From Pseudomonadales bacterium (GTDB taxonomy: Bacteria > Patescibacteriota > Microgenomatia > UBA1400 > PJMF01), in NCBI GenBank assembly GCA_020632265.1, contig JACKFW010000001.1:465892-529891 (forward strand): a DNA stretch of 64,000 bases, given 5' to 3'. A program made the position numbers and the translations under genes. Of this stretch, positions 8,115-62,734 are shown one piece after another. Every line of letters begins with the position of its first letter. Within the stretch, counting starts at the first letter, position 1. Under the pieces are notes generated by a model, which saw only the letters and a list, made by a program, of their open reading frames with translations, was not told the DNA's origin and made no database searches.

Positions 8115-8158
8115 ATTTTTTTGTGTCTTCTATATTTTATTAATCTAGATCAAAAATG

Positions 8159-8243
8159 CGGAGGCAGTGGGATTCGGACCCACGAACCGGAAACCCGGTC
8201 AAGGTTAGCAACCTTGTGCAATTGGCCACTATGCGATGCCTCC
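8159..8243 (-). tRNA. tRNA-Ser (anticodon GCT)
   Basis: Manual fold gives acceptor GGAGGCA/TGCCTCC, anticodon stem CAAGG/CCTTG, loop TTGCTAA and a long variable arm. No CCA is encoded. Confidence 0.7.
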
Positions 8244-8824: not shown

Positions 8825-8910
8825 GGAGGTGTCGCATAGTGGTCAATTGCACACGCCTGGAAAGCGTGATCCTTATGGATTCAAGGGTTCGAATCCCTTC
8901 ACCTCCGCCA
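8825..8910 (+). tRNA. tRNA-Ser (anticodon GGA)
   Basis: Acceptor GGAGGTG/CACCTCC, anticodon stem CACGC/GCGTG, loop CTGGAAA, long variable arm, T-arm AAGGGTTCGAATCCCTT and an encoded CCA. Its last 20 nt recur at 21791-21810. Confidence 0.75.
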
Positions 8911-10362: not shown

Positions 10363-11237
10363 GATGAATCCTTAAGGGCAGGGAGATTTAAAGTATTATA
10401 CACACTATATTCGCAATCCCCATTTCTTTTTGTTTCAAATATATTTTTATAACTTGGTATTATTTCATTTAATCTTGTGAGAATCTTTTCTGCCTCATAT
10501 CCATATAAAGTAACAGGTTGTTTTAAATTTCTAGAACCAGAATATGCTCTTTTTCCATTGAGTCTCGGATCATCAACGCTTTTTGATAAGTACTTAGCCA
10601 TATATCCAGCTATCCTATCAAGAGTTTTTCTATTAATTTTAACAAAACCAAGCTTCCACCATTTTTCAAGTAATTTTTTAGGTATATAAGGCAAATTACA
10701 AGCTAAATGAAAATGAATAGCTCCTCGATTGTTTTTATCTTGAAATTCAATAACCCAAACATATTTTAAATTAGGATATTTATATTTTAGCAACCTTAAG
10801 AAGTTTTTTAAGTATGCTGTACACTCATCAACATTTGTAATATCTAATCCGCAATCATCTTTTAAGGTAAGAACTATTGATTTAAAAAATCCCTGAAAAT
10901 TAGTATTGATAATTCTTTTAACTTTGAAAGATCGTCTAGTTCCAGTTCTTTTTGAATATTCATCACTTCTATCTTTTTGAGATCCAAAATTATTTAAGTT
11001 TGTATGCGGGAGATTTACAACAATTGGATCTTGATAGATATACTTTTCAACAAAATCTCCTGAAACAATAATTTTTAAATTCGTAGCAAAGGGTTTTGGA
11101 ACATGAATATTGGCTGATATTCTTCGTTCTAGTTTGACGGTATTATCAAGTCTAGTAGTGTGCTCGGGCACACTAGGAAGAGCAAGACCTAAAGGTCTAG
11201 CACCAAGAATATCTTGAACATCATTTTTTAACAACAA
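10359..11237 (-). CDS. rolling-circle replication initiator, Rep_1 (pC194/pUB110-like) HUH family
   Basis: 292 aa with motif II GAIHFHLACNL (HUH) and motif III GYMAKYLSKSVDD (AKYxxK..D, active-site Tyr). Its start overlaps the recombinase start by 4 nt, suggesting an operon. Confidence 0.6.
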   Translation of the reverse strand: MLLKNDVQDILGARPLGLALPSVPEHTTRLDNTVKLERRISANIHVPKPFATNLKIIVSGDFVEKYIYQDPIVVNLPHTNLNNFGSQKDRSDEYSKRTGTRRSFKVKRIINTNFQGFFKSIVLTLKDDCGLDITNVDECTAYLKNFLRLLKYKYPNLKYVWVIEFQDKNNRGAIHFHLACNLPYIPKKLLEKWWKLGFVKINRKTLDRIAGYMAKYLSKSVDDPRLNGKRAYSGSRNLKQPVTLYGYEAEKILTRLNEIIPSYKNIFETKRNGDCEYSVYNTLNLPALKDSS

Positions 11238-13236: not shown

Positions 13237-13330
13237 AGTTCCAATTTCATCCCACGCTCTCCGCATGTAGGGACTCCTGGCAGGAATTGTGTTAAAATTT
13301 GGATAGGTGTAGGGACTAGAGAACCTAAAC
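13237..13330 (+). repeat. full cassette junction unit (variant-B core plus promoter-like module)
   Basis: agttccaatttcatcccacgctctccgca then tgtagggactcctggcaggaattgtgttaaaatttggataggtgtagggactagagaacctaaac. It ends 10 bp before the next start codon. Confidence 0.7.
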
Positions 13331-13340
13331 ATATCTTATT

Positions 13341-14214: not shown

Positions 14215-14308
14215 GGTTCTAACTTGGTACACACACCTCCGCAAGTCAGAACTCCAGGCAAAGAATGTGATAAAATTAGGATAGGTGTAGGGACAGTAGA
14301 ACCTACAT
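14215..14308 (+). repeat. full cassette junction unit (variant-A core GGTTCTAACTTGGTACACACACCTCCGCA plus promoter-like module)
   Basis: ggttctaacttggtacacacacctccgca then agtcagaactccaggcaaagaatgtgataaaattaggataggtgtagggacagtagaacctaca. The core resembles the tRNA-Ser(GGA) 3' end ggttcgaatcccttcacctccgcca. Confidence 0.7.
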
Positions 14309-14331
14309 TAAATTATCAATAGAATATACAT

Positions 14332-16475: not shown

Positions 16476-16569
16476 AGTTCCAATTTCATCCCATGCCCCC
16501 CGCAAGTCAGAACTCCAGGTTAGGAATGTGATAAAATTGGGACAGGTATAAGGAATTTAGAACCTAAAA
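16476..16569 (+). repeat. full cassette junction unit (variant-B core plus promoter-like module)
   Basis: agttccaatttcatcccatgccccccgca then agtcagaactccaggttaggaatgtgataaaattgggacaggtataaggaatttagaacctaaaat. Confidence 0.7.
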
Positions 16570-16573
16570 TACA

Positions 16574-18598: not shown

Positions 18599-18689
18599 GG
18601 TTCTAACTTGGTACACACCTCCACATGTCAGAACTCTAGGTTAGAAATGTGCTAAAATTGGGATAGGTGTAGAGAATTTGATATCTAAT
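18599..18689 (+). repeat. full cassette junction unit (variant-A core plus promoter-like module)
   Basis: ggttctaacttggtacacacctccaca then tgtcagaactctaggttagaaatgtgctaaaattgggataggtgtagagaatttgatatctaattagaacctaat. Confidence 0.7.
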
Positions 18690-18743
18690 TAGAACCTAAT
18701 ATATATTAAATTGCATTAATAATTTTGTATTGTATTATAAGCA

Positions 18744-25603: not shown

Positions 25604-25755
25604 AAAGTTCCAACTTCATTCCACGCTCCCCGCATTTGACAGAAAGTGAGCTTTAGCTCAGTTTGTGTCAAATATGAATGGGATGAGAAGTTTATGCCCC
25701 ATCAAGCGAAATATAAAAATATAAATTTGAGCATGACCGGGCTTAAATCCCCCTC
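25604..25755 (+). repeat. module M copy 3 (diverged): variant-B core, hairpin, conserved about 60 bp, then a degenerate tRNA-Ser(CGA) 3'-end 17-mer
   Basis: aaagttccaacttcattccacgctccccgca...tatgaatgggatgagaagtttatgccccatcaagcgaa...aaatttgagcatgaccgggcttaaatccccctccctc aligns with the reverse complement of 54351-54515 and of 57741-57877. Confidence 0.6.
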
Positions 25756-25915
25756 CCTCTTAACAATCTGAAGATTTAATAGACTCAAACTTGCAACAGA
25801 AGAATACGAGGTCTCATTAAAGGATTAATCCTCAAAATAATCACTCTGCAAATCAAACATCATTTGGATTAATGGAGGTATTCAAGCCCCTTATAGGACT
25901 AAGTCAAGCCAAGTT

Positions 25916-26995
25916 CTACGGGCTTGATTGTGACTTTTCACTCTCTCGACCGTCTAAAATCCCATCACCATCTGAGTCCGGATTGATTGGGTCAGTACCA
26001 TGTCCAACTTCATAACCATCTAATAATCCGTCGCCATCTGAGTCCGGATTGAGTGGATTGGTGGGATAATAAAAAGTTTCATCACCATCTAATAATCCGT
26101 CGCCATCTGAGTCCGGACTGAGTGGATGGGTGTGAGCTTGAAAAAATTCAGTCCCATCAGCTGATCCATCACCATCAGTATCTTGATTATTTGGATCAGT
26201 ATGTAGAAGCTTAGTCTCCTCGTAGTCCATCAATCCGTCGCTATCTGAGTCCGGATTGAGTGGATCAGTACCATGTTGTTTAACTTCATCGCCATCTGAT
26301 AATAAGTCACCATCTGAGTCCGGATTGATTGGGTCAGTACCATGTCCAACTTCATCACCATCTAATAATCCGTCGCCATCTGAGTCCGGATTGAGTGGGT
26401 CAGTATGAAAATAATTTTCCTCATCAAAGTTCCACAACCCATCTCGATCTGTATCTGGATGAAGTAATCCAGAAAGATATTGGTTAAAATTTGGCAATTC
26501 TTGAGAAATCAGGCATATACCAAGGGAAGAGCTACCAAGTATGGCTACTAGAAAAAGCATACGCATCCTGTTTCTAAATCTTATTCCCCGCCTTCTCCTT
26601 CTCTCCCTATTTGTTTCCTCAGTAGGTGCTGTAATAGAAATTACTTCTGTCTGAGTAGAATTGCTATTTGGTGGTGGATAAATTTCAACTCTTTCTATAT
26701 CTTCTGGGAATCTCTCTCCTCCATAAATTAATAAAAGAAGTTTTTCTCTAACACCTTGCCGTAGACTTTGAGGAATAGTTTCTAGTGCATTCTCTAGTGA
26801 AGAGCCTAAATTGTGATTAGTTGACCGTCTGTAGTGTCCTGCAGCTGCGGGATTACCATGACAAATAATCAAATCTGCGGCATAATTCCATTCGAGGGAC
26901 CGCTGATTATTTGTAACATGATCGGTTGGTTCCAAAAGAGTTTCGTGATCAGGACTCAAAATTTTAATACGATGATCTAATGAACGTTGTATCAT
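25916..26995 (-). CDS. membrane-anchored protein with thrombospondin type-3-like calcium-binding repeats
   Basis: 359 aa. After an internal TM segment (LFLVAILGSSSLGICLI) it carries at least 8 tandem DP(L/I)NPDSDGDGLLDGDE repeats. Confidence 0.55.
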   Translation of the reverse strand: MIQRSLDHRIKILSPDHETLLEPTDHVTNNQRSLEWNYAADLIICHGNPAAAGHYRRSTNHNLGSSLENALETIPQSLRQGVREKLLLLIYGGERFPEDIERVEIYPPPNSNSTQTEVISITAPTEETNRERRRRRGIRFRNRMRMLFLVAILGSSSLGICLISQELPNFNQYLSGLLHPDTDRDGLWNFDEENYFHTDPLNPDSDGDGLLDGDEVGHGTDPINPDSDGDLLSDGDEVKQHGTDPLNPDSDSDGLMDYEETKLLHTDPNNQDTDGDGSADGTEFFQAHTHPLSPDSDGDGLLDGDETFYYPTNPLNPDSDGDGLLDGYEVGHGTDPINPDSDGDGILDGRESEKSQSSP

Positions 26996-47541: not shown

Positions 47542-50500
47542 TTACACCTGATAATTTTTTGCTGCCATCTCTAACAGTCTATCTGAAATAAACCTAAATG
47601 GCGTTGCCTTTGAGTCGGTGTGTGTTTGCATATAAACCTTGCGTTCTTCTGGCATTAATACCATTCTACGAATTGCCGCCAGTGCTTGATTTTCAGTCAT
47701 TTCACCAAATCTAACCTGGTTCCATAGGCCTGGTCTGACATGTTCAATGAAAGCTTCAACTAGTGGAGTTGCATTTCTGCCCCGCTCTGAATAAAAACTA
47801 ATTGCTTCAATTATGTGAGTCAACTCTTCTATATAGGTGTCAACAAACTCTTTAAATGGTTTTTCATCTAAAGATTGAGATAGTTTAATTCGTAAACTGC
47901 TTTTATCTGCAAAGCTTCTATCTCCGGTGATGATATCAATTGGTACAATTATGCCAGTCGCACGCTGGAACAAGTCTATTCTCCTGTATAACTCATAAAG
48001 AGATTCGTTTGCTGCCACAGGTGTTTCATCAAATTTCATCATGGTCTCTACCATCTCGCGGGAAAGAGGCGTACCGCTAGAAGCCACGTTACGAAAGTCA
48101 TCTATAATTGATTGGCGTATTTCATTCAAGCTTCTGCCATCAGGTAGTTTAATGTTCATTAGTAAATGCTCTAAGTTGTATACCGATTCATCAGTGTACT
48201 TACCCATCTCAATTGCATCTGCAGTTTGTGTGCTCCCTGCTAATAGTTGATCAAATAACTCAGCTTCTGTTTTTATGTCATAATCAGGTCTGTAATATTG
48301 ATTATATAGTGCATCATTTGCTAGCATCGGAACATACCAGGATCCTTTTCTATATCGTTGGGCTAATTCGCGGTACACAGTAGCTGCCACAGTTTTCTTT
48401 AACCTATCAATTTCTTGTTTTGAAACTGCTAATCCAGCCCTAACTCTGGTGGGAGGTAGCCAGGTAGGAACATCCACCTGCAAAACCAAACCCTGATTTT
48501 CCAAGAGTTGAACAATTGTCGGATGAATATAGTCAGTTAATCCAAAATTTCGATCTTCTACTTCACCTAGTGACATATTTCTTCTTCGAACATCTGCCCA
48601 TGGATAGTCTTGTCTTTGAGCTAGAGCAACTCTTAGAGTGCCAGATCTTTGCTTCCCAGTAGCTGTTTCACCAGAGTAGCTAATCTCACCAATGACTTCT
48701 TGCTGTGGAGGCTCTAAATTTTCGGATTGATATGATATAGGCATCAGCTCTGAAATTGGACGAGCATAATGTTCAACAGCATTGCGAACAATCTTTTCTT
48801 GCCATTCTGGGGGAAGATCTTGAGTCAATTTTACTCTGACAGTGCTTCCTGGATACTTGTCCGAGGGATGTTGCTCATCAGCCAATATCACAATATCAGT
48901 TACCATGTCATTTTCTCTTACAATACCAAGGCGAGTGATTGATTCCACTCCATTTTTTACTGCAACTACATCAATTTCATCCGCAACCAAAGCCACAGTT
49001 CCAAATCCCCAACCAATGCCCCCTTCAACAAGTGGGTTTGCTGCTTTCTCAAGATCTCTAGTATTGAATTGGAGTAATTTGTTTTTGATTACATCTATGT
49101 CCATACCAATCCCTTGATCTGAAATTTCAAAAACTCCATGCGTAATGTTGTCACCTTCCATTTCTCGATACATTCTCATATCAATCTGTCCGCCTTCAAC
49201 CTCAAAACCGTTCATAATGACTGCGTCACGAGCATTTTGTAGCAGTTCACGTACAAAAGTGTCCCATCGCACCGATTGTGAGTGAACAGCTTTCATAACT
49301 GACTCGGTATCTGCTTCAACCACTCTTGTAGTATCAAATGGATCAGCACCTCGTTTTTTACGAGCAATCATTTGACCTACAGTAACTCCACTCAGCCGAC
49401 CTTGTGATAATTCTTGTTTTGCTTCTTCTGCAAGTACTCGAACATCACTCGATAAAAAGTCAATCATTTCATCTGTTTGTCGGCTTAAGCTTCCAGGATT
49501 ATCAACTATGTCTATATACATCTGATTGAATAATGTTCTAAGTGAAGTTTCACTCATCATCATTTGAACATTTTTAAGCAAAGATTCTTGATCACTAGCT
49601 CCATGTTTAATGACTGTCGCAACTATTTTGGCAAAAGCATACTCTTCAAAAGGATCTTCTGGTACTGTAAACTGGCCTCTCTTTGCTAGTTTTGATATTT
49701 GCTCTGCCAATTCTGGAGTTAGAACTTCCTCATACAAAAGCAGTGGAATAATGCGGATTGTGCATAAGCTATCTGCAAGCTCAGGATTTTCTCTGGATAT
49801 TTTTGTCAATTGATAAAGCATTTGTATTTCATCAAACTCTCCACCAAGTACGTTTCGCAGATCGCGAACCCTGTCTGCAACCATAGCAACCGACTGAGCA
49901 TTTTCGTGAATAGGCAATAGGCCAGGTAGATATGCCCCTTGAGGTAAGAAGAAGTCTCTTGCAAATGTACAACCAGCTTGTTCAAGTTGAGAAACTGCTT
50001 GTTGTACATGTTGAGGCGGGGATTGTAGATTCTCGTTCAATGATGGATTTTTCACTAAAGTTGTAATGGCGAGGTTTGCCATTTCTGGATTCTTGAGTCT
50101 GTATTTCATCAGGTTTGCCATAACATTTTGAAATAAAGTTTGAACTTGTGGATCAGAAAAATCCCAGCTTGGGTTTTTGCAGCAAGCGATAAAGGTTTCT
50201 CCAACCAATGTGGTAGCCCAATTATTTTGTTGTTCATGAGAAGCTAAGCGTTCTTCGACTTTGTCAATAACAAATGATTGGGAAATTTCGACGATCTGCT
50301 CCAATATTTGACTGTAATTTCTCACTAAATTCACACTTACAGGAATGTTAGGATGAGAGAAAAAATCCTTAATAGCAATTGGAATTGAAGCTGAAAGCAC
50401 TATAGACTTTGATTGTTGATGTTTTTTTGTGTAGTCAAGACCTTCAAAAATTGCATTGGTCAATTCGATTAGTACTTCTTCATCAACATTTGTACTTTCT

Positions 50501-53500
50501 GGGTTTGAAAAGATTGATAGTAATTTATATGTAGTATTTCCTGGATATCCAACTTGAATTTCAGGGTTATTTCTATCTTTAATCTGTTGAATCAAATTAA
50601 CCATAGTCTCACTGTCAAAATGTGCTAGATTAGGAGAATTGAATATGTTTACTCCATTGTCTCTGAAGAAGAACCTCACAAAATTTTTAGAATAACTAGC
50701 AAGCCAGTAATTAAGGGATTCATTTCCCAGGACGAGTGCGCCAGAATTAATTAAAAACTGTTCATAGACTAAACCTAAATGATGTATGTAACCTGATTCC
50801 AAAAGTTGTGGAGACAGTCTAATTAGTTCATCATGTATTTGTGAATAAATGTTTGCCCAATCATCCCCAATGTTTGGGTTGGTTGCCAAACCTTCGAATG
50901 ATGCAACTAGGCAAGTTGGAAATTGTTGGTCAATAATACCAGATTTATGAAGATAATCCCAATAACTCTTAATCCTTTCTTTAGCCCAATTAGTAACATC
51001 GGGATTATCAAGTTGAAATTTTTGACTAGCAGCATTAAATATATTAATATATTTTAAGTGCCTGAAAATATCTATTTTCCAAAGATTTTTACCAGACTTT
51101 TTTATTCTATGGTGTTGGGCAGTTTCAAAATCAAGGAGTAGCTGAGAGTTTTTTAAACACTGTTCAACTTTTTTTCTTACCCAATCATCTTCAAAATTAA
51201 GTTTTTTTGTTAGAAAATATTCGGATAATTCAGCATAGCCATATGACATTAGGTCATCTGACTCCTCTTTAATTAATCTAATTAATTCTGTTCTTTGAGT
51301 CTCAAAAACATTATCGATCAATCCCCGCACCCACGGATCAGAAAGATCTAACCATTCCTTCTTAACCAGTTTCGTTCCCAATCTAATTAACCGTTCTCCT
51401 TTAAATGTTTCAAAGGCATGGGTTATGTGCTCTCGAATCCAAGGGTTATCTACTGTGTCTATGCCTCGAAGCAATTCCTGATAGCCTTCAAATAGACCTT
51501 GCTGAGTATTATCAGGTAGCTTTTGACCATCCCTCATCAATGTTTTTTCTAACCTAATGTATCTGTCTAACATCTCTTGTCCAAATTTAGTCTCCCAGAA
51601 AACTGAAGATATGTTATCCGCACCGAATTTTTCTTCACGTTTATCGTACATCTGAAAATAAAGATCCATATATTTGACAACTAAATCTCGACACCATTGA
51701 TGATCGAAGTCCCAAGGTAAGCCAAATATCAGCATTGGTATAGATTGAGATAACAACTGGCGCTTGATTTCATCCAATTCGTTTTTTGATAGATGACGAC
51801 CGCTTCGATCAGTACCTGTATCTAAGGCTAGTAAGTCTTGTCGAATATTTTGTTGAATGCTGTGTAGCAATTCTCTTAGAGTAGTTCGTTCCATTTCCGA
51901 TCTATCATGGTGATCTCTACGTCCATTTTCTCTCATCATCACATGCATTTCTATCACGTCCATATATCTTGAACCGCTCATAAACTCATCCATGGTTTGG
52001 TCCCAATCAAAACTTTTTTCAATATCTCGAGAGGATTCGGCAGATTCTTCAATCTGTTGAGATGCAGACCTCTGCATTGGTACAAATTCTCCCGCTTTGA
52101 TTGAGGCAAAACCCTTAAATGAAGCTGGTTGAGGATAGCCAACGTCAATGCCATTTATCAATGCATTAAGGATGTCTATGCCTTCACTAGTTTGAATAAG
52201 TCTGTCATATACAGCACGATCTAAAAATAGGACTCCTTCATGTTCAAAATGCAGCGGATGGTATTGGTCGTCATTCTTAAATTTGGCTAGATAAAGCTGA
52301 TAAACTCTGGAACCACGCCAACGATCTGACATTTCACCGATTGATCTTGGAGAAAAATCAAACAAGGCTTCGTCAACATGAACAAAACCCTCTGCATCTA
52401 GATGAGAAAAGTCATCAGTGTTTGGAACAAACTGCGCTCCTTGTTTTTTTTCAAGTATCTCTAAATCACCTTTAATTAGTGGCCTTATTCTCCGTGATAC
52501 CATCGATACAAACATTTTGTAATCTTCTGACTTAGTGTTTCCAATATCTTTAGCAATGGCTCTAAGGACAGCTGTAAGCAGATTAGCATACCTTATTCTG
52601 TCAATTGGTTCTTCAATAGCTTTGATTTGGTCAATGATAACTTCTAGATTATATTCATATTCCTTATCTTTAAGTATTCGAGTCCAACTCTCGTCCAATG
52701 TAACAGTGTCCAGCGAAATGACTGCTTTATCTGCGGGAAAGCTACCCCTTATTCTGCCTTTAATTTGATATTGCTCTACTGTAATTCCACTAACTTGAAT
52801 ACTGAATGTTGGTTCAACAGAATTTGAAGTTGTTTCTCCTACAAGGATTTGAGCATTACTTTTCCTATCTCGACGATTAAATCTTTTTGTACCACGTCCA
52901 GGAACTAAAAATTTTTCGTATAAAACTTCTGTAGCTGTTTTTTTAGGTTGAGTAAGACCTGAGCCTCGGTCTAATACAATATAACCCTCGTCAGAGAGAT
53001 AGATATAAATATTTCCTCTTGATTTTCGTGATTCGTTATTATTAATACCTCGCAACTTATCTGCTTCTTTATTTATTCGCATTTTTCTGCCATCTGCAGT
53101 GGCGCACCAAATGTTAAAGCCTTGTGAATCAGCAAAACGCCATTTGACTTCAGCAAGCAATTTATCAGCATTCATTGGAGCATCGACTCTAATAACAGTT
53201 CCATGATTCAAGTTTCCTTCTAGCCCAAAGGGTTCGAGGACCAATTTTGCCTGTCTTTGCAATTCTTGGTCAGGATTTTGATCAGGAGCAAATAAGAACT
53301 CACCGCCACTTGCGCGAACATATCCACCAGTTGTCTCTCCAGCTTGATTTTTGCTCAGTACACTAAAGCGAGCATCTCTACGTTTAGTGAGCCACTGCCA
53401 TGTTGAAACAATTCCTTTCCCAAATCGTCCAGTTGTATCTTCTAGGTGAGCATCGCGGGCATTTGTCACAGCTTCAACTACTGTTTGTTCTAGGATAGCC

Positions 53501-54117
53501 TGTTGAAAAACATGACTAGCTTCATCAAAGGGTGTGTATTCCAGTCGTCGACGTTTCAAGATATCACCATCAACTCGACCTTCTCTTTGCCATTTATCAT
53601 ATTCCGCAGCATCTCCATGCCCGCCCTCAACATAACCAATTATTTGTTTAATAGGGTAATAGGTTTGGCTCTTTGGAAGTTGACGAGCTGTTTCAACAAG
53701 TTTTCTTCGTTGAGCGAAGGGTAGCACTCCCACCAATTCTTTTAGAGTTCTTGTATCATTCTTATCTGTGGATTTAATAAGTTTTTCAATGATTCTTAAA
53801 CTTTTTAGTAAAAATGATCTTACAAATGCCTCACCAAGTACGTCGATTATCTCCTCACCTGTTGGTTGTTGATCTTTAGTGGCTTCAGTCCTTTGGCGAT
53901 AAAGAGAGAAAAGTTGCTGATTTTCAGGGTCCAGTAAATCATGGCCAACAATTAAAACGAGATCATCATTACTAGTAATGTTTTCTATGAGTCTCTGTTT
54001 ATCAAACAAAAAGCCATGATAATAATCGACAAGTCTAGGAAGCGCATCTTCTAGTTTTGTGTTTCGCTCGGCTGACCTTGTGGATGGTAAGTATTCATTA
54101 TTTGGATTATATGACAC
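47542..54117 (-). CDS. giant (2191 aa) cytoplasmic protein with GHKL/Hsp90-like ATPase domain
   Basis: An uninterrupted 6.6-kb ORF. Residues about 1600-1800 (nt about 48700-49300) carry Bergerat-fold boxes: N-box RELLQNARDAV, G1 DQGIGMD and G2 GGIGWGFGTVAL. There is no signal peptide or TM segment. Confidence 0.7.
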   Translation of the reverse strand: MSYNPNNEYLPSTRSAERNTKLEDALPRLVDYYHGFLFDKQRLIENITSNDDLVLIVGHDLLDPENQQLFSLYRQRTEATKDQQPTGEEIIDVLGEAFVRSFLLKSLRIIEKLIKSTDKNDTRTLKELVGVLPFAQRRKLVETARQLPKSQTYYPIKQIIGYVEGGHGDAAEYDKWQREGRVDGDILKRRRLEYTPFDEASHVFQQAILEQTVVEAVTNARDAHLEDTTGRFGKGIVSTWQWLTKRRDARFSVLSKNQAGETTGGYVRASGGEFLFAPDQNPDQELQRQAKLVLEPFGLEGNLNHGTVIRVDAPMNADKLLAEVKWRFADSQGFNIWCATADGRKMRINKEADKLRGINNNESRKSRGNIYIYLSDEGYIVLDRGSGLTQPKKTATEVLYEKFLVPGRGTKRFNRRDRKSNAQILVGETTSNSVEPTFSIQVSGITVEQYQIKGRIRGSFPADKAVISLDTVTLDESWTRILKDKEYEYNLEVIIDQIKAIEEPIDRIRYANLLTAVLRAIAKDIGNTKSEDYKMFVSMVSRRIRPLIKGDLEILEKKQGAQFVPNTDDFSHLDAEGFVHVDEALFDFSPRSIGEMSDRWRGSRVYQLYLAKFKNDDQYHPLHFEHEGVLFLDRAVYDRLIQTSEGIDILNALINGIDVGYPQPASFKGFASIKAGEFVPMQRSASQQIEESAESSRDIEKSFDWDQTMDEFMSGSRYMDVIEMHVMMRENGRRDHHDRSEMERTTLRELLHSIQQNIRQDLLALDTGTDRSGRHLSKNELDEIKRQLLSQSIPMLIFGLPWDFDHQWCRDLVVKYMDLYFQMYDKREEKFGADNISSVFWETKFGQEMLDRYIRLEKTLMRDGQKLPDNTQQGLFEGYQELLRGIDTVDNPWIREHITHAFETFKGERLIRLGTKLVKKEWLDLSDPWVRGLIDNVFETQRTELIRLIKEESDDLMSYGYAELSEYFLTKKLNFEDDWVRKKVEQCLKNSQLLLDFETAQHHRIKKSGKNLWKIDIFRHLKYINIFNAASQKFQLDNPDVTNWAKERIKSYWDYLHKSGIIDQQFPTCLVASFEGLATNPNIGDDWANIYSQIHDELIRLSPQLLESGYIHHLGLVYEQFLINSGALVLGNESLNYWLASYSKNFVRFFFRDNGVNIFNSPNLAHFDSETMVNLIQQIKDRNNPEIQVGYPGNTTYKLLSIFSNPESTNVDEEVLIELTNAIFEGLDYTKKHQQSKSIVLSASIPIAIKDFFSHPNIPVSVNLVRNYSQILEQIVEISQSFVIDKVEERLASHEQQNNWATTLVGETFIACCKNPSWDFSDPQVQTLFQNVMANLMKYRLKNPEMANLAITTLVKNPSLNENLQSPPQHVQQAVSQLEQAGCTFARDFFLPQGAYLPGLLPIHENAQSVAMVADRVRDLRNVLGGEFDEIQMLYQLTKISRENPELADSLCTIRIIPLLLYEEVLTPELAEQISKLAKRGQFTVPEDPFEEYAFAKIVATVIKHGASDQESLLKNVQMMMSETSLRTLFNQMYIDIVDNPGSLSRQTDEMIDFLSSDVRVLAEEAKQELSQGRLSGVTVGQMIARKKRGADPFDTTRVVEADTESVMKAVHSQSVRWDTFVRELLQNARDAVIMNGFEVEGGQIDMRMYREMEGDNITHGVFEISDQGIGMDIDVIKNKLLQFNTRDLEKAANPLVEGGIGWGFGTVALVADEIDVVAVKNGVESITRLGIVRENDMVTDIVILADEQHPSDKYPGSTVRVKLTQDLPPEWQEKIVRNAVEHYARPISELMPISYQSENLEPPQQEVIGEISYSGETATGKQRSGTLRVALAQRQDYPWADVRRRNMSLGEVEDRNFGLTDYIHPTIVQLLENQGLVLQVDVPTWLPPTRVRAGLAVSKQEIDRLKKTVAATVYRELAQRYRKGSWYVPMLANDALYNQYYRPDYDIKTEAELFDQLLAGSTQTADAIEMGKYTDESVYNLEHLLMNIKLPDGRSLNEIRQSIIDDFRNVASSGTPLSREMVETMMKFDETPVAANESLYELYRRIDLFQRATGIIVPIDIITGDRSFADKSSLRIKLSQSLDEKPFKEFVDTYIEELTHIIEAISFYSERGRNATPLVEAFIEHVRPGLWNQVRFGEMTENQALAAIRRMVLMPEERKVYMQTHTDSKATPFRFISDRLLEMAAKNYQV

Positions 54118-54350: not shown

Positions 54351-54515
54351 ATTTCCTCTCTTAGAGGACATAACACTGCGTAGGGAGGGGGATTTACCCT
54401 CGTCATGCTCAAATTTATATCTGCTTTGCGAATTCGCTTGATCGGGCATAAACTTTCTCATCCCCACTCATATCTGTAAAAAAATAGGCTTACAGCCTAC
54501 TTTTTTACAGATGCG
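54351..54515 (-). repeat. module M copy 2: tRNA-Ser(CGA) 3'-end 17-mer, conserved about 118 bp with hairpin, then a variant-B core in place of the tRNA
   Basis: 54351-54486 is nearly identical to 57741-57875. It is then followed (reverse complement) by aaagttccaatttcatcccatgctccccgca where the genuine tRNA end sits in copy 1. The listed ORF 54258..54467 is probably spurious. Confidence 0.7.
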
Positions 54516-54658: not shown

Positions 54659-55450
54659 TTAAATGGGGAAAGAACAAAAAGATAGATCAGATTCAATTGC
54701 CATAAAATTTATGAAGTCCTTTTTCAAATTATCAATAGAAATACCCAATTTGTTACTTAATAGTTCTATACTTTTCTCTGGCATAAGACTATTAAGTTTC
54801 AATTTATTAGTTACATCATCCATTGACAAACCTTTATGCAAACCAAAATATGCTACTCCCAAAACTAAGTTTTGGTAGTCAGGATGGACATTAATTTTGA
54901 AAGTATTTTCACCAGCTTGAGAAACACCTTCTGAATCTAATCCTAAAACAGTTCTAACCTCTTTCTCATTTATTATAGAATTTTGATTTCCCATTTTGTT
55001 ACAAAGAAGCTTAATTGCTCTAGCAGTTCTTCCATTCCCATTTTTGTATTTATGCAACAAAATTTCCATTAAATAAAATCCATTTGCAAATCTATCCCAA
55101 TCTGAATCTTCAAAAACCTTATCAACTAAAGATCTAACTATTTCATTATAAATAACTTGATCTTTTGATGGTTTTTTCCAAACAGTAAGACCAACCTTAA
55201 ATGCAATAATAGTATCTTTACTAGAATGAATATCTGTTTTTTTATCTATATTTAAAAGTTTTCTATTAAGCAAATCATCAAAACCGCTAATAATCCCCAC
55301 TAACCCTTGAATATCTCCCTCACTTAAGAAAGCTTTTAATATTTTTAAAGTGAATTGTAATGTCTCTGTCATGCGAAGAACAGATTCTTCACGAAACTCT
55401 TTTGAGTCTTGATCATATCTACTACTTATTTTTTCATCTTCATTTATCAT
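54659..55450 (-). CDS. Fic/Doc-family protein (cassette cargo)
   Basis: 263 aa with HKYKNGNGRTARA matching the Fic core HxFx(D/E)GNGRxxR, with N at the acidic position. It is preceded directly by a full junction unit. Confidence 0.6.
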   Translation of the reverse strand: MINEDEKISSRYDQDSKEFREESVLRMTETLQFTLKILKAFLSEGDIQGLVGIISGFDDLLNRKLLNIDKKTDIHSSKDTIIAFKVGLTVWKKPSKDQVIYNEIVRSLVDKVFEDSDWDRFANGFYLMEILLHKYKNGNGRTARAIKLLCNKMGNQNSIINEKEVRTVLGLDSEGVSQAGENTFKINVHPDYQNLVLGVAYFGLHKGLSMDDVTNKLKLNSLMPEKSIELLSNKLGISIDNLKKDFINFMAIESDLSFCSFPI

Positions 55451-55610
55451 AAAAATTTTTAGGTTCTAAATTCCCTACACCTATCCCAATTTTATCACAT
55501 TTCTAGCCTGGAGTTCCATCATGCGGAGGTGAAGGGATTCACGATTCGCTCGTTTCACTCACTCACATGCACTAGGCAGGCTCGCTTTGTTCGCTTGCCG
55601 TCGCGAACCA
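55451..55610 (-). repeat. junction unit whose core is the genuine tRNA-Ser(GGA) 3' end plus att flank (inverted relative to the tRNA-Ser(GGA) locus)
   Basis: The reverse complement reads ...tagtgcatgtgag...gcgaatcgtgaatcccttcacctccgca-tgatggaactccaggctagaaatgtgataaaattgggataggtgtagggaatttagaacctaaaaattttt-ATG(Fic). It is homologous to 21745-21810. Confidence 0.7.
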
Positions 55611-55639: not shown

Positions 55640-55707
55640 AAACGTACAAAAAAATAGGCTTACAGCCTACTTTTTTACAGACGCGGAGCATACGGGTCTG
55701 GAACCCG
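55640..55707 (-). repeat. partial module M hairpin plus variant-C core repeat (GGTTCCAGACCCnnATGCTCCGC)
   Basis: aaaaataggcttacagcctacttttttacagacgcggagcatacgggtctggaacccg. Confidence 0.6.
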
Positions 55708-55714
55708 TGCGTCG

Positions 55715-56137
55715 TTATAAATTCAAAGTGACATCTTCTAAGTTTTCAAATCTTCCATCCTGATATGGTGGATAACAAATTTCAAAAACAACTAAGTTCT
55801 CATCTGATTGCCACTGCATGATATCTCCTACTTCAATTGTGTGTGAAAATCCTTCGGTTTCTGGGCTTACTTCAAATACTAATTTTTCACCATTTGGCTT
55901 AAGTATAATAAGTCTACCCTTTCCAGAAATATAACCTTCTATTGTTTCTTGGCCAGTAAGAACTTTTTGAGGTTTAGTTTTTTTACCAGACTCAATATAA
56001 ATAACTCCCAGATCTCTTTCTTTTGTTTCTGGGTGAAGATATACGTCACAGACAACTCCAGGAAAAACTTCGGATGAAACAATAAATTTAGTTATGAGCG
56101 TTTTGTGCTTATACGTAAAGGTCTCAAGTCTTTTCAT
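55715..56137 (-). CDS. hypothetical protein, possible cupin-like (cassette)
   Basis: 140 aa, beta-rich, with no confident motif. Confidence 0.35.
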   Translation of the reverse strand: MKRLETFTYKHKTLITKFIVSSEVFPGVVCDVYLHPETKERDLGVIYIESGKKTKPQKVLTGQETIEGYISGKGRLIILKPNGEKLVFEVSPETEGFSHTIEVGDIMQWQSDENLVVFEICYPPYQDGRFENLEDVTLNL

Positions 56138-56173: not shown

Positions 56174-56275
56174 TCACTGTAGTTAGAATACTAGGATGCG
56201 GAGCATGTGGGTCTGGAACCCGGTTATCACTATAGTTCGAATCCTAGGATGCGGAGCATGTGGGTCTGGAACCCA
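56174..56275 (-). repeat. two tandem variant-C junction repeats
   Basis: gtcactgtagttagaatactaggatgcggagcatgtgggtctggaaccc and tcactatagttcgaatcctaggatgcggagcatgtgggtctggaaccc. The reverse complement core is ggttccagacccacatgctccgca. Confidence 0.7.
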
Positions 56276-56296
56276 GATATCTATGTAGCACTATTC

Positions 56297-57680: not shown

Positions 57681-57740
57681 ACATAGATCACCAACCCATT
57701 CAACCATATTAGACGGGTCTGACATAACTTTTCAACTATT

Positions 57741-57875
57741 GCGGAGGGAGGGGGATTTACCCTCGTCATGCTCAAATTTATATCTGCTTTGCGAATTCGC
57801 TTGATCGGGCATAAACTTTCTCATCCCCACTCATATCTGTAAAAAAATAGGCTTACAGCCTACTTTTTTACAGAC
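57741..57875 (-). repeat. module M copy 1 immediately downstream of tRNA-Ser(CGA), ending in a 17-bp direct copy of the tRNA 3' end
   Basis: Reading 5' to 3' on the minus strand, the tRNA 3' end ...ccccctccctccgc is followed by gtctgtaaaaaagtaggctgtaagcctattttttt (hairpin), then about 80 bp, then aaatccccctccctccgc (57741-57758). Confidence 0.7.
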
Positions 57876-59002: not shown

Positions 59003-59086
59003 GGAGAGCTGGCAGAGTGGTCAATCGCAACGGTCTTGAAAACCGTGACCTTTATGGTCTCGTGGGTTCGAATCCCTCGCTCTCCG
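59003..59086 (+). tRNA. tRNA-Ser (anticodon TGA)
   Basis: Acceptor GGAGAGC/GCTCTCC, anticodon stem ACGGT/ACCGT, loop CTTGAAA, long variable arm, and a T-arm with one T-T mismatch. Confidence 0.6.
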
Positions 59087-59094
59087 CAAATAAC

Positions 59095-59769
59095 ATGACT
59101 ACACATCAACTCACAGAAAAATTAGTTGCAGATATTGAAAAAAAGTCTGATGATCATTCATTGTTTATTGTTGCCATCAGTGGACTAGATGCTTCAGGAA
59201 AATCTCAAATAGCTGAAGTTTTAGCAAGGAAACTTGAAGATAGAAAAAAAAATGTTCTCAGTGTGTCAGGGGATTCATTTCAATTTCCACGTGAGTACAA
59301 GGAGGATTTTCAGGAAAAAGACTGGACCACTCAACACATAAGAAGAACAATCAATTTTGAAAAAATGACCACTGAATTATTCCAGCCTCTGCAAGCTTTG
59401 CCAAATACTTTGCAATTAGATATTGTCAATTATGACACAAAAGAAAAAGTAAAAACTGCTGTCTCATTACAATACCCGCTAATTCTCATTGTTGAGAGTA
59501 TTTATCTCTTTTCTCATAAAATGATGCCATACTTTGATTATAAAATTTTTCTTGATATTTCAATTGCAGAAGCTTTAAAGAGAGCAACTTTACGAAAAAG
59601 AGATTTGGAGCTTTATGGTAGTGCAGATGGGATTCAGCAAAAATATGAAACTAAAAACTTTCCGGGATATCTCGAATTTGATAAGCAGGAGAACCCAAAA
59701 AGCCTTTCAGATGTTGTCATAGATAATAATGATTGGCAAAACCCAGTAATAATTAAAGGTGAGTTATAA
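59095..59769 (+). CDS. uridine kinase/phosphoribulokinase-family P-loop kinase
   Basis: The listed ORF 59017..59769 begins inside the tRNA. The likely start is ATG 59095 (MTTHQLTEK...) with Walker A ISGLDASGKSQ. Confidence 0.55.
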   Translation: MTTHQLTEKLVADIEKKSDDHSLFIVAISGLDASGKSQIAEVLARKLEDRKKNVLSVSGDSFQFPREYKEDFQEKDWTTQHIRRTINFEKMTTELFQPLQALPNTLQLDIVNYDTKEKVKTAVSLQYPLILIVESIYLFSHKMMPYFDYKIFLDISIAEALKRATLRKRDLELYGSADGIQQKYETKNFPGYLEFDKQENPKSLSDVVIDNNDWQNPVIIKGEL

Positions 59770-59777
59770 CGACGCAC

Positions 59778-59802
59778 GGGTTCCAGAACTGGGTGATCCG
59801 CA
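59778..59802 (+). repeat. variant-C core repeat (plus orientation)
   Basis: gggttccagaactgggtgatccgca. The preceding ttataacgacgcacgggttccaga is identical to the reverse complement of 55687-55710. Confidence 0.6.
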
Positions 59803-59821
59803 ACAATAAACAAATTTACAT

Positions 59822-60310
59822 TTATTGTGATATTTTATTTAAAACTCCCTTTTCCAAACGATCAATAAGCAACCAAATAACCATAGATACTATCATCGCA
59901 ATCCAAAGCATAAAAAACAAGAAAGTAAATTCTATACCTTGAGTAATTGTAATAATGAAAAATCCTACAATATTTAATACAAATATGAATCCAATAACTA
60001 ACTTTTTAGAAACTTTAATATTAATATTAAAAACTCGTTCAGCGATAAATAAAAATATTGCATAAATAAAGTATAATTTATAAAAAATATTCATTACATC
60101 ATCTTTAGTGTGCAGACCATCAGGAACATGTAATTGCTTAAAGAATAAAGTATCTGCACCAAGTATATTTAATGACATAAGAATAATGACAAAATTAGTA
60201 ATAACTATGAAAGTTTCTGGAGCTTTTTTTAAAAAAAATAAAAAATATGAAAAAATATTTAATAACAACTTTATGCCAGAATTTAGTGAATCTAATTTTA
60301 TTGAAACCAT
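59822..60310 (-). CDS. hypothetical polytopic membrane protein
   Basis: 162 aa with 4 TM helices. Confidence 0.4.
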   Translation of the reverse strand: MVSIKLDSLNSGIKLLLNIFSYFLFFLKKAPETFIVITNFVIILMSLNILGADTLFFKQLHVPDGLHTKDDVMNIFYKLYFIYAIFLFIAERVFNINIKVSKKLVIGFIFVLNIVGFFIITITQGIEFTFLFFMLWIAMIVSMVIWLLIDRLEKGVLNKISQ

Positions 60311-60393
60311 ATAAAATCAGTATAACATTGCTTTAGACTAACTCTAAGTAAGTTTTGACTCAGATATTGAAAACAACTTTTTCCCAATTGATT

Positions 60394-60426
60394 AAAGTTC
60401 TAATTTCATCCCATGCTCCCTAGCAC
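60394..60426 (+). repeat. variant-B core repeat
   Basis: aaagttctaatttcatcccatgctccctagca. Confidence 0.6.
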
Positions 60427-60452
60427 ATACATCTTTATGCTACAATTTTTAT

Positions 60453-61091
60453 ATGAAAACAGCACGCATCTACGTTTTTGGTGATAGTTTGACTTACGGA
60501 GCGTGGGATAGCCAAGGTGGTTGGTGCGATAGAATCAAGCGCAAACTCCACGAGCTAAAACTTACTCCAAATTCTGATCATAAATTTCAAATGTTTAATT
60601 TGGGTATTGGTGGAGAAAACTCCAGATCTTTATCTAAAAGATTTGAAAGCGAACTTACCAATAGATGCCGTGAAGATTGGCCTGCCGTGATAATAATAGC
60701 TACTGGAGCAAATAATTCCCTTTTCACCAAATCGGACAAAAATCCTGTTGTATCTATTGAAGAATTTCAACAAGACTTAGAAAAAATCATCAATACTGCA
60801 AAAAAATATACAAATAAAATCTTATTTGTAGGAATAGCACCTGTTGAGAATGACCTTCAACCATTTAAAAACTCACTACATAGCAATGAGCTACTAAAAA
60901 AATACGATGATGTAGTAACTTTTGTCACTAACAATTACTACATATCGAAGATTAATGTCTGGGAAAAGTTCAAGTCTGCAACTGAGCATTTGTATTCAAT
61001 AGACAGTGTTCATCCAAATGACAATGGTCATAAAATAATTGAACAACTTGTTTGGGCAGAATTATCAAAAATTCTTCTAGAAAAGGGTTGA
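60453..61091 (+). CDS. SGNH/GDSL-family hydrolase
   Basis: 212 aa with block I IYVFGDSLTYGAWD (catalytic Ser) and a C-terminal DSVHPN (DxxH). Confidence 0.7.
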   Translation: MKTARIYVFGDSLTYGAWDSQGGWCDRIKRKLHELKLTPNSDHKFQMFNLGIGGENSRSLSKRFESELTNRCREDWPAVIIIATGANNSLFTKSDKNPVVSIEEFQQDLEKIINTAKKYTNKILFVGIAPVENDLQPFKNSLHSNELLKKYDDVVTFVTNNYYISKINVWEKFKSATEHLYSIDSVHPNDNGHKIIEQLVWAELSKILLEKG

Positions 61092-61141
61092 TTTTTCTTC
61101 AGGAAATACTCCAATTTTATCCCCCACTCTTTGTAAATGAA

Positions 61142-61954
61142 TTAGTAAGAAAATGTTTCTAAAATTTTCAATGCTGTATTAACATCTGTTGAATTAACAA
61201 ATTTATCTGACATCATATAAACACTTTCCATCCCATTTATTTTTGAAACAAATTCACCAGTTATCATTGTAGTTCCTTGAGTATTTAAACCATCAAACCC
61301 ATAGCAAATGTTGTTCCAACAACGCTGAGCAGGAATAACGTTGAAACGAATGTTTCCAGTAGAACTAAATTCTTTGTTTGGCTGAAGTCCATTCAACACT
61401 ACATATAGTGGCTTATTATAAAAGTTTAATGTCGCTAATGTTTGATTTTCAATGTTATTTTTTTGACATTCTTCATCACATCCACCTCCTAAACCATCAA
61501 TATTAGTCCTTATTCTTAATAAAAAATTATTAGGAGACAATAATTGAATATCACCCATGCTCCACTCAGAATTAGAATTTTCAACGTTATTTTCTTCTAA
61601 CTTCCAGTCGGGCGGATAATTAAAGCTAAGTTTTTCATTAAATATTTTGTATGATTTCCACTCATCATTTGAAGTAATATCTTGCATATTTTTTAACTCA
61701 GATTCAATATTTTGATTATCTATAAATGAATTAGAACTGTCATTAATTTTGTCAAAATCTAAAACTGAATTATGCAAATCAGATAATTTTAATTCTAAAT
61801 TTGATATTTTTTGTCTTATTAAAATATTTTGAAAAAACAAATAGGAGATTCCAAATATTAGCAAGAAAAAAACTACGATTGTTAAATATAATCGTATATT
61901 ATTTTTCTTTGAATCACTAACTTTGCTGGAATTATCTTCAAAACTGTCGCTCAT
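61142..61954 (-). CDS. hypothetical secreted/membrane-anchored protein
   Basis: 270 aa with an N-terminal TM/signal segment and 4 Cys in the C-terminal half. Confidence 0.4.
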   Translation of the reverse strand: MSDSFEDNSSKVSDSKKNNIRLYLTIVVFFLLIFGISYLFFQNILIRQKISNLELKLSDLHNSVLDFDKINDSSNSFIDNQNIESELKNMQDITSNDEWKSYKIFNEKLSFNYPPDWKLEENNVENSNSEWSMGDIQLLSPNNFLLRIRTNIDGLGGGCDEECQKNNIENQTLATLNFYNKPLYVVLNGLQPNKEFSSTGNIRFNVIPAQRCWNNICYGFDGLNTQGTTMITGEFVSKINGMESVYMMSDKFVNSTDVNTALKILETFSY

Positions 61955-62012
61955 AAAAACTTGTTGATTTTCATTTATTTTATAATTTTACATGATTTAT
62001 TTGACAAAACGC

Positions 62013-62040
62013 AATTCCAATTTGATCCCACACTCTCTTC
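62013..62040 (+). repeat. degenerate variant-B core repeat
   Basis: aattccaatttgatcccacactctcttc. Confidence 0.45.
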
Positions 62041-62293
62041 AAGAACAAAAAGTATTTTTGACACGTCAAATACTACTAAATTATCAATTTTTTGTCCAAA
62101 ATTGACTAACTTTTCAAAATAATAGAGCCATATTTGCTAAGAAAGAATTGGAAAAAATGCTAGAAGATCAGAAAACTCAAGAAAGCTAATAATTCTCAGT
62201 TCTCTTTCAGTTTCATAAGTTATATTACCAATACTGTTAACAGTATTAATTATCATTAGATGTAATTCATCTGAGACACAAAGGTATAAAATT

Positions 62294-62734
62294 ATGAAAA
62301 TGAAAACAGCATTACTAGGAGTTGTTTTAGTCGGTGGAGTAATGAGCATATCTCCAAGTTTAGTTTCCGCTTATCAAGGTAATCCAAATGTCCAAGGACC
62401 AAATTATTCATCAGTAAGACATGAGGCAATAAACCAAGCTTTCAGCAATGGTGATTACAATTCATGGAAACAACAAATGGAAGGAAACGGGGCTACCAAT
62501 CGAATAACTGAAACTAACTTCCTTCGCTTTGCAGAAGCTCACAAACTAGCAACTCAAGGAGATCTTGAGGGCGCGAAAAAAATCAGAGAAGAACTTGGAT
62601 TAGGACTTAAAGATGGCTCTGGTCAAAAGAATGGTTTAAATCGAAACCACGATATGAATCAAAACCAAAATTCTGGTCAGCATAAACAAAACAGCATTGG
62701 TCTTAAAAGAAGCTTTAATCAAGATAAAAACTAA
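62294..62734 (+). CDS. small secreted protein
   Basis: 146 aa with a signal peptide (MKMKTALLGVVLVGGVMSISPSLVSA), Gln/Asn-rich. Confidence 0.45.
   Translation: MKMKTALLGVVLVGGVMSISPSLVSAYQGNPNVQGPNYSSVRHEAINQAFSNGDYNSWKQQMEGNGATNRITETNFLRFAEAHKLATQGDLEGAKKIREELGLGLKDGSGQKNGLNRNHDMNQNQNSGQHKQNSIGLKRSFNQDKN

Follow-up and report, generated by a model that had tools for sequence, protein, structure and literature searches.

Why is a serine tRNA gene followed by a row of genes interrupted by short repeats that resemble the 3' end of the tRNA itself? The question is raised by a 64-kb stretch of bacterial DNA (the window), part of a genome of ~1.08 Mb, in which tRNA-Ser(TGA) is followed by such a row, here called array 3. 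A sequence-only reading had listed the tRNA, a kinase gene, several repeats, a membrane gene and a hydrolase gene in this array, and we find all of them in the positions it gave. Array 3 is likely to be a fossil accretion island, left by a family of elements that carry a large serine recombinase (LSR) together with a rolling-circle replication gene (Rep) and that insert at the 3' ends of tRNA-Ser genes.

The window is chromosomal, with ~30% G+C and the housekeeping genes DnaG, ProRS, TatC, AdoHcy hydrolase and Maf. ARAGORN detects five tRNA genes, Ser-GCT, Ser-GGA, Ser-CGA, Arg-GCG and Ser-TGA. Adjoining array 3 is a gene for a 201-aa protein, the anchor protein, which matches H6772_02600 exactly. 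Because the relatives of this protein come from metagenome-assembled genomes (MAGs) of Pacebacteria, Woesebacteria and Microgenomates, the host is assigned to the Patescibacteria (candidate phyla radiation, CPR). MAGs of this clade are often deposited as 'Pseudomonadales bacterium' or 'uncultured Gammaproteobacteria' (L011, L013, L015, L016 and others), names that are contradicted by their gene content and relatives. Genomes of Patescibacteria are roughly 1 Mb in size, and their routes of gene gain are poorly known. For comparison we fetched 190 loci in all, among them 80 related species retrieved with the anchor gene (L009-L088) and a second set of 79 metagenome loci retrieved with the LSR.

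Geometry of the repeats and cassettes of array 3

The repeats in the window are versions of the 3' half of tRNA-Ser: a T-loop-like GTTCnAA, an acceptor-like stretch and then C(T/C)CCGC. All copies share the orientation of the adjoining tRNA. Allowing up to three mismatches, the consensus of variant B matches the window nine times against none expected (100 shuffles), and both B copies of array 3 are included. The consensus of variant C has five matches, again with none expected; the diverged C copy of array 3 is not among these.

The variants are told apart by the distance between GTTC and the core CCGC. Across the window and the 190 loci, a spacing of 18 nt is the rule for tRNA-Ser 3' ends (165 of 169 distinct ones) and C sites (all seven), and one of 23 nt for B sites (22 of 29) and A sites (four of six). 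Aligning the consensus of B (AAAGTTCCAAtTtCaTCCCAcGCtCtCCGC) with that of the tRNA (GGGTTCGAATCCC.CccccTCCGC) shows where the extra bases lie: the inner TCCC is at equal distance from the core in both, and only the outer GTTCnAA has moved, by 5 bp. In serine integrases, the motif for the zinc-ribbon domain occupies bp 16-24 of the half-site in attP and bp 11-19 in attB, that is, 5 bp nearer the centre in attB, and the position of the recombinase-domain motif is unchanged between the two (Rutherford et al. 2013, PMC3783163). Because the shift observed here, which was examined for left half-sites only, corresponds to this published architecture, we take the tRNA and the C sites to be arms of attB type, and the A and B repeats to be of attP type. 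Judged from sequence, the array repeats are not plain tRNA fragments.

Left arms (A, B and C) and right flanks are joined in varied combinations, for example with a 75-nt flank of X type, as expected for exchange at the core. C-type junctions form a quasi-palindrome of roughly 40 bp (19+CC+19) with attB-type spacing on both sides. In array 2, which lies at tRNA-Ser(CGA), four C junctions are identical over ~60 nt, with the quasi-palindrome centred on CC, and at 56198-56290 (-) a pair of complete C-type sites, spaced 53 nt apart, encloses nothing, which makes it an 'empty cassette'. The 75-nt X-type left end is found at 13265-13338, 14243-14316, 16504-16571, 18625-18706 and 55449-55522 (-), and also in L089 and L172. 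It contains a promoter-like TGTGATAAAAT box and an inverted GGTTCTA motif, lies without exception directly against a site core, and has A, B or tRNA-like arms as its partners. An A-type arm and an X-type flank were also considered together as one symmetric LSR site with inverted GTTCTRACTTG motifs. The symmetry axis of these motifs falls on one base, 7 nt to the left of CC, and the idea was dropped because such a centre does not fit a dinucleotide centre.

Array 3 starts at tRNA-Ser(TGA) itself (59003-59087, +; ARAGORN and Rfam). Its T-loop motif GTTCGAAT begins at 59066 and is 18 nt from the core CCGC at 59084-59087, and we read the gene as an attB-type left arm. The cargo of cassette 1 is a P-loop nucleoside/nucleotide kinase-like gene (59095-59769, +), whose ATG at 59095 lies 7 nt past the end of the tRNA at 59087 and which is probably transcribed by read-through from the tRNA promoter. 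It matches Pfam PRK/APS_kinase and NCBIfam uridine-kinase families, all under the curated cut-offs. A PSTK/KTI12-like role that would link the kinase to tRNA-Ser was considered and rejected, as the KTI12 match is weak and the uridine-kinase-family matches are better. The right end of this cassette is a C-type site (59764-59801, +), recognized by repeat comparison. Its repeat, GGGTTCCAGAACTGGGTGATCCGC at 59778-59801, has GTTC from 59780, an intact core CCGC at 59798-59801 and the 18-nt attB-type spacing. The sequence-only reading had noticed that the flank of this repeat recurs in array 2; indeed, the copy at 55683-55720 has the same outer 24 nt (TTATAACGACGCACGGGTTCCAGA, 59764-59787). Further in, 6 of 23 positions deviate from the C consensus, which is why the 3-mismatch search missed this copy.

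Cassette 2 carries a gene for a visibly hydrophobic, multi-pass membrane protein of 162 aa (59822-60310, -), for which family searches gave no match, and ends in the B-type site AAAGTTCTAATTTCATCCCATGCTCC (60394-60425, +), found with the B pattern. This site has one mismatch to the B consensus (60396-60418) and the attP-type spacing of 23 nt, and its core is changed to CTAG (60420-60423). Two genes make up the cargo of cassette 3. One encodes a GDSL/SGNH hydrolase (60453-61091, +), an annotation that the Pfam match upholds (2e-18). The other encodes a 270-aa protein (61142-61954, -) without a match in family searches, previously described as secreted; it has a hydrophobic N-terminal membrane anchor, so that a membrane-anchored or exported protein fits better than a simply secreted one. 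The cassette is closed by AATTCCAATTTGATCCCACACTCT (62013-62042, +), a degenerate site that also follows the B pattern, with two mismatches to the B consensus (62013-62035) and the core changed to CTTC (62037-62040). The core CCGC, common to all other repeat copies, is mutated in both B copies of array 3 and kept there only in the C copy. Relative to the repeats, two of the four cargo genes run antisense.

Beyond the last site lies an ORF for an exported protein of 146 aa (62294-62734, +), which may or may not belong to the island: no further site was found past 62042 near this gene, and it has no homolog near tRNA-Ser(TGA) in the relatives. The relatives' conserved downstream blocks were tried as a marker for the far border of array 3, and none lies within the window. 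A promoter and terminator scan of the array was uninformative, with fewer promoter-like matches than in shuffles.

A serine recombinase family and variable tRNA-Ser loci

The only candidate enzyme in the window is an LSR encoded at 8899-10362 (-), in array 1 and not in array 3. It contains the domains Resolvase (PF00239), Recombinase (PF07508) and Zn_ribbon_recom (PF13408), matches the PHROG integrase family phrog_95 (7e-78), and has residues R8 and S10 that are invariant in 40 homologs. Its partner, recognized by profile matches, is a rolling-circle Rep gene at 10359-11237 (-). The last codons of the LSR (8899-8910) are antisense to the 3' end of tRNA-Ser(GGA), CCTCCGCCA, and the C-terminal consensus of the family, WRRxxDSNPR, is the antisense reading of the tRNA 3' end CCTCCGCCA...GGGTTCGAATCC. 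Because the reading frame runs antisense through the tRNA 3' end, the C-terminus of the LSR would differ between the integrated and the excised state.

The LSR has more than 400 homologs, Rep adjoins LSR throughout the family, and the LSR gene and the core physically overlap in more than 40 loci. Most homologs with at least 42% identity and enough flanking sequence overlap a tRNA-Ser 3' end (79 metagenome loci). The anticodons of the overlapped tRNA-Ser genes are cga, tga, gga, gct and act (ARAGORN), and one locus (L090) has a Rep-LSR element on tRNA-Ser(TGA). The remaining homologs at this identity overlap tRNA-Gln or tRNA-Pro or lie within tandem arrays. More distant branches, with 31-46% identity, are found at or beside the 3' ends of tRNA-Gln, tRNA-Pro, tRNA-Ile and tRNA-Ala (L105, L111, L112, L125, L126, L131-L135, L138 and L143-L165). 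The distribution suggests LSR subfamilies specialized for different tRNAs.

The position of the crossover can be narrowed by comparing two LSRs that are 92% identical and occupy different isoacceptors, GGA in the window and CGA in L089. At these junctions the sequence left of CTCCGC is tRNA-specific and that to the right is element-specific. Since the flanking bases differ among partners on both sides, the exchange would lie within CCGC. The crossover dinucleotide is most likely CC, the only non-palindromic choice in CCGC, because a directional serine integrase would need a non-palindromic dinucleotide. A cut within CCGC would leave the whole tRNA intact, making every serine isoacceptor usable.

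The loci of relatives also show what lies at the other end of the elements. In more than 20 loci a B arm forms the far end of a Rep-LSR element, and is often succeeded by more B sites that are separated by single small ORFs. Five B sites are present in L090, the last with a mutated core as in array 3, and three in L089. Internal junctions have the form of the arm of element n, the core, and the start of element n+1. L106 and L119 carry three different LSR elements in tandem, in which A-like or B-like arms directly abut the next LSR gene, indicating that serial insertion occurs in this family.

The locus at tRNA-Ser(TGA) also varies between species. The neighbourhood of tRNA-Ser(TGA), the 201-aa anchor gene, tRNA-Arg and tRNA-Ser(CGA) is kept in most of the 80 related species, and none of these species has array-3 genes near it. 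The sequence-only reading had asked whether tRNA-Ser(TGA) is followed by different genes in relatives. It is: 0 to 8 species-specific ORFs lie between this tRNA and the conserved syntenic blocks in the 43 species with enough sequence. The opposite outcome, a conserved order of tRNA, kinase and hydrolase without the repeats, was looked for among the relatives and not found. Within L009-L088, all significant B and C sites lie at most ~2 kb downstream of a tRNA-Ser and in the same orientation where the locus includes upstream sequence; the single exception is a C site in L020, with no upstream tRNA within the locus. Such sites are present at tRNA-Ser(TGA) in L012, L016 and L072 and at tRNA-Ser(GCT) in L053 and L062.

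In the window, arrays are carried by three of the four tRNA-Ser isoacceptors, as had been proposed, and tRNA-Ser(GCT) (8158-8243, -) is the sole tRNA-Ser without insertions. The view that this gene is spared holds for the window, where no repeat lies downstream, but not for the relatives, in which tRNA-Ser(GCT) is a frequent target (L036, L096, L098-L101, L104, L107 and L120, besides the two loci with B sites, L053 and L062). The T-loop of the window gene reads TCCGAAT, with C where the other three tRNA-Ser genes and the GCT genes of relatives have T, and its motif is GTCCGAAT in place of GTTCGAAT. Because that motif is the proposed recombinase contact, the emptiness of the gene may follow from the T-loop variant, or it may be chance.

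The kinase gene provides the clearest sign of movement at the level of cassettes. It is rare, with only 19 homologs in 5.8 billion proteins. A homolog lies 4 nt past tRNA-Ser(GGA) in L184 and L185/186. In L187, a 78% identical gene lies ~100 nt past tRNA-Ser(GCT) and is followed by a window-like TTATAA...CTGCTCCGCAAC end. In L190, whose array contains Rep, the gene comes just after an internal B site that has the 23-nt spacing. Three further contexts (L182/183, L188 and L189) have no nearby tRNA. The other array cargo proteins, compared with all fetched loci by tblastn, gave only generic GT2 matches and one small ORF, and thus no evidence of mobility.

Arrays 1 and 2 have additional features. 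A module of ~135 nt is present in three copies, at 57738-57875 (-), 54375-54512 (-) and 25634-25763 (+), of which one immediately follows tRNA-Ser(CGA) and the others close arrays 2 and 1 distally. The module is made up of a terminator hairpin, ATGAGTGGGGATGAGAAAGTTTATGCCCGATCAAGCGAA...TTTGAGCATGACGAGGGTAAAT and then a copy of a tRNA-Ser 3' end, and its last ~14 nt co-vary with the acceptor strand of the adjoining tRNA. Nine other loci have the module conserved behind tRNA-Ser(CGA) or tRNA-Ser(TGA), and in the window it gives rise to assembly breaks at about 57852. A decayed copy of tRNA-Ser, a mini-element without coding sequence and a small RNA are all possible identities. The ~90 nt before a site of array 2 at 55523-55545 (-) resemble this module. 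The 3' 17 nt of that site equal the 3' end of tRNA-Ser(GGA), AATCCCTTCACCTCCGC, which points to exchange between arrays. A giant ORF of 2191 aa (47542-54117, -) starts about 260 nt past the distal limit of array 2; its sole Pfam match is a weak one to HATPase_c. Just beyond array 1, a 359-aa protein of bacterial TSP3 repeats is encoded at 25916-26995 (-), and DNA repeats with a 69-nt period at 25965-26459 are its coding repeats.

Origin of array 3

In the mechanism that we propose, small circular elements with Rep and LSR would integrate site-specifically into tRNA-Ser 3' ends, and recombinase-less cassettes would possibly use the same sites. The T-loop motif of the tRNA, GGTTCGAAT, 18 nt from CCGC, would be the attB-type contact. 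The element's own arm, variant A or B, would present the same motif 5 bp further out, at 23 nt, as attP. Crossover would fall inside CCGC, the last bases of the acceptor stem, and so spare the tRNA whichever serine isoacceptor is used. Each insertion would leave an attP-derived arm and a core at its far end. Later insertions at the tRNA would push older ones outward, so that a repeat comes to stand after every cargo gene in the row. Array 3 would since have lost the recombinase module and, at its two distal sites, the core, and the arrangement would have become fixed in the sampled population. We regard the array as a fixed remnant because it is near-identical across samples, has no recombinase and contains two dead cores. 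It is decayed, not live.

Several observations weigh against this origin. Array 3 contains no recombinase, and is tied to the LSR family through the types of site that they share and through other loci. Contigs from at least six other samples carry it with 99.98-100% identity, which gives no hint of current mobility. LSRs of the canonical kind join attP to attB only, and serial insertion at an occupied tRNA would need attL or another hybrid site as target. No conserved motif is seen in the right halves of the junctions at the tRNA and at A and B arms, only the C-type junctions being quasi-palindromic. The C-type sites have attB-type spacing, and the mechanism offers no role for them. Among short LSR contigs, no circular free form or direct attP was detected by terminal overlap, an absence that in assemblies is weak evidence, and no LSR relatives were found in viral contigs (IMG/VR). 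Finally, the analysis covered 64 kb of the genome, and another recombinase elsewhere in it is possible.

Such a recombinase, a tyrosine or integron-like integrase encoded elsewhere, might be the real user of the sites, the association with the LSR being incidental. As described for Islander and for tycheposons, tRNA 3' ends are the classical targets of tyrosine integrases, and the acceptor-like part of some arms matches the local tRNA over at least 14 nt (L012), like the identity blocks of these enzymes; most of the genome also lies outside the 64 kb covered. Nevertheless, we consider this explanation unlikely. No tyrosine recombinase is present among the ~60 window ORFs scanned against Pfam, and it is the LSR gene that overlaps the core in the loci described above. 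The 5-bp shift of the outer motif is the rule for LSRs; for a tyrosine recombinase, it would put the core-binding sites in the wrong place. Nor do the sites fold like attC: RNA folding of five sites gave no excess structure compared with shuffles (z -0.65 to +1.0). The same folding result bears on a possible function of the repeats in RNA, where they might be tRNA-like 3' tags, processing signals or terminators of cassette transcripts. Their derivation from the T-arm and acceptor strand, and the several ORFs that end inside or right before a repeat, would suit such a role. However, the folds of the five sites are neither stable nor unusual, the B arms are unable to form a T-stem, half of the array-3 cargo genes run antisense to the repeats, and Rfam, at gathering and relaxed thresholds, returned only tRNAs, with no match for the repeats or the ~135-nt module. 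A function in RNA is therefore very improbable.

The repeats could also be inert debris of duplicated or decayed tRNA-Ser genes, with neighbours that differ by ordinary rearrangement. Their likeness to tRNA 3' halves, the degeneration of two of the three array-3 copies and the invariance of the array in the sampled population speak for this. On the other hand, the B and C motifs are conserved nearly base for base in species whose anchor proteins are only 50-70% identical, and the 5-nt insertion is constant. The sites are always at gene-cassette boundaries and at the far end of LSR elements, and left and right arms combine differently. Debris of this kind is thus quite unlikely to account for the repeats, and accretion of Rep-LSR elements is the explanation we prefer.

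Beyond accretion of whole elements, the locus may reflect integron-like gene capture in Microgenomatia-type Patescibacteria, run by a serine integrase in place of a tyrosine integrase. We offer this extension tentatively. Non-autonomous single-gene cassettes with conserved ends, namely right arms of type A, B or C and left ends of X type with a promoter, would be moved in trans by Rep-LSR elements and land at any tRNA-Ser, with the T-loop as outer recognition motif and the first cassette expressed from the tRNA promoter. The presence of the kinase at TGA, GGA and GCT genes and at an internal site is in keeping with it. That recombinase-less cassettes are independent units moved in trans is favoured by the X-type left ends, which abut the core in all three species that have them, and by the four identical C junctions of array 2, which stand between unrelated genes. 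For some units, an origin as deletion remnants of full elements is favoured, as the flank of a B site in L089 resembles the LSR-side arm.

If the accretion reading is right, the locus and its relatives point to a concrete route of gene gain in CPR bacteria, namely widespread small elements with Rep and a serine integrase at the invariant ends of tRNA-Ser genes. These would leave accessory genes in rows: kinase, hydrolase, membrane and exported proteins, and glycosyltransferases. The anatomy of the sites translates into testable attB/attP pairs for many new serine integrases. The putative attB, the T-arm and acceptor end of the tRNA, is present in practically every bacterium and could interest builders of integration tools. 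Array 3 itself matters mainly as a decayed end-state, illustrating how such islands become fixed.

Comparison with known systems

The window LSR has the same three-domain architecture as serine integrases such as the Listeria phage A118 integrase, phiC31 and Bxb1. The sites, too, follow the pattern of these enzymes, with the same 5-bp shift of the outer motif, a fixed inner motif, a short shared core and a recombinase gene beside the site. Known LSRs mostly target protein-coding genes; here, by contrast, the target is a tRNA 3' end, the T-loop is the outer motif and all serine isoacceptors are used. Tandem piling is likewise not predicted by a strict attP x attB rule, and the partner of the recombinase is a rolling-circle Rep rather than a phage genome.

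The tycheposons of Prochlorococcus insert serially at one tRNA, newcomers pushing older elements deeper, and form islands with scattered partial-tRNA repeats, degenerate remnants, replication genes and cargo (bioRxiv 10.1101/2020.12.28.424599). Tyrosine recombinases are used by 910 of 937 of them, and their repeats are true partial tRNAs (bioRxiv 10.1101/2020.12.28.424599). The present locus resembles them in serial insertion at a tRNA, partial-tRNA repeats, remnants and a small, streamlined host genome. As in tycheposons, the island lies directly downstream of a tRNA, and repeats that stem from the 3' end of this tRNA and share its orientation mark the borders and divide the interior. Its gene content varies among relatives while the tRNA neighbourhood is conserved. 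Unlike them, it involves an LSR, modified arms with a 5-bp insertion, and units that are mostly single genes of 0.6-1.6 kb. The tyrosine recombinase that serves as integrase in the majority of tycheposons is absent from the window ORFs scanned, and the linked enzyme is the LSR.

Staphylococcal SCC elements offer a parallel for the enzyme class. Their LSRs, CcrAB or CcrC, insert at the 3' end of rlmH and give rise to tandem arrays, short direct repeats and pseudo-SCC units without a recombinase. The islands described here share with SCC composite islands LSR insertion at the 3' end of a conserved gene, tandem arrays and recombinase-less units. However, the window LSR is not an orthologue of Ccr (67.9 bits to NCBIfam CcrB, against a cut-off of 900), the target is a tRNA, the host phylum differs and the units are much smaller.

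Integrons, finally, resemble these arrays in that most cassettes hold one gene, often lack a promoter and end in a recombination site, and in that the first cassette abuts a resident promoter; the counterpart here, for the kinase, would be the tRNA promoter. In contrast to integrons, the window has no IntI-type tyrosine recombinase, attI or attC-like folded sites, the cassettes lie in both orientations, and some have a promoter-like left end of their own (X type).

Serial insertion at a tRNA site that leaves partial-tRNA repeats and decayed units is thus already known from tycheposons and tDNA islands and, for LSRs, from SCC. The version described here, with an LSR at tRNA-Ser in Patescibacteria, appears to be undescribed, as we found no description in the open-access literature. 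What distinguishes it is that an LSR family is dedicated to tRNA 3' ends, with the T-loop as outer recognition motif and every serine isoacceptor in use, that the array repeats are attP-type arms, that most units consist of a single gene, and that the host belongs to the CPR.

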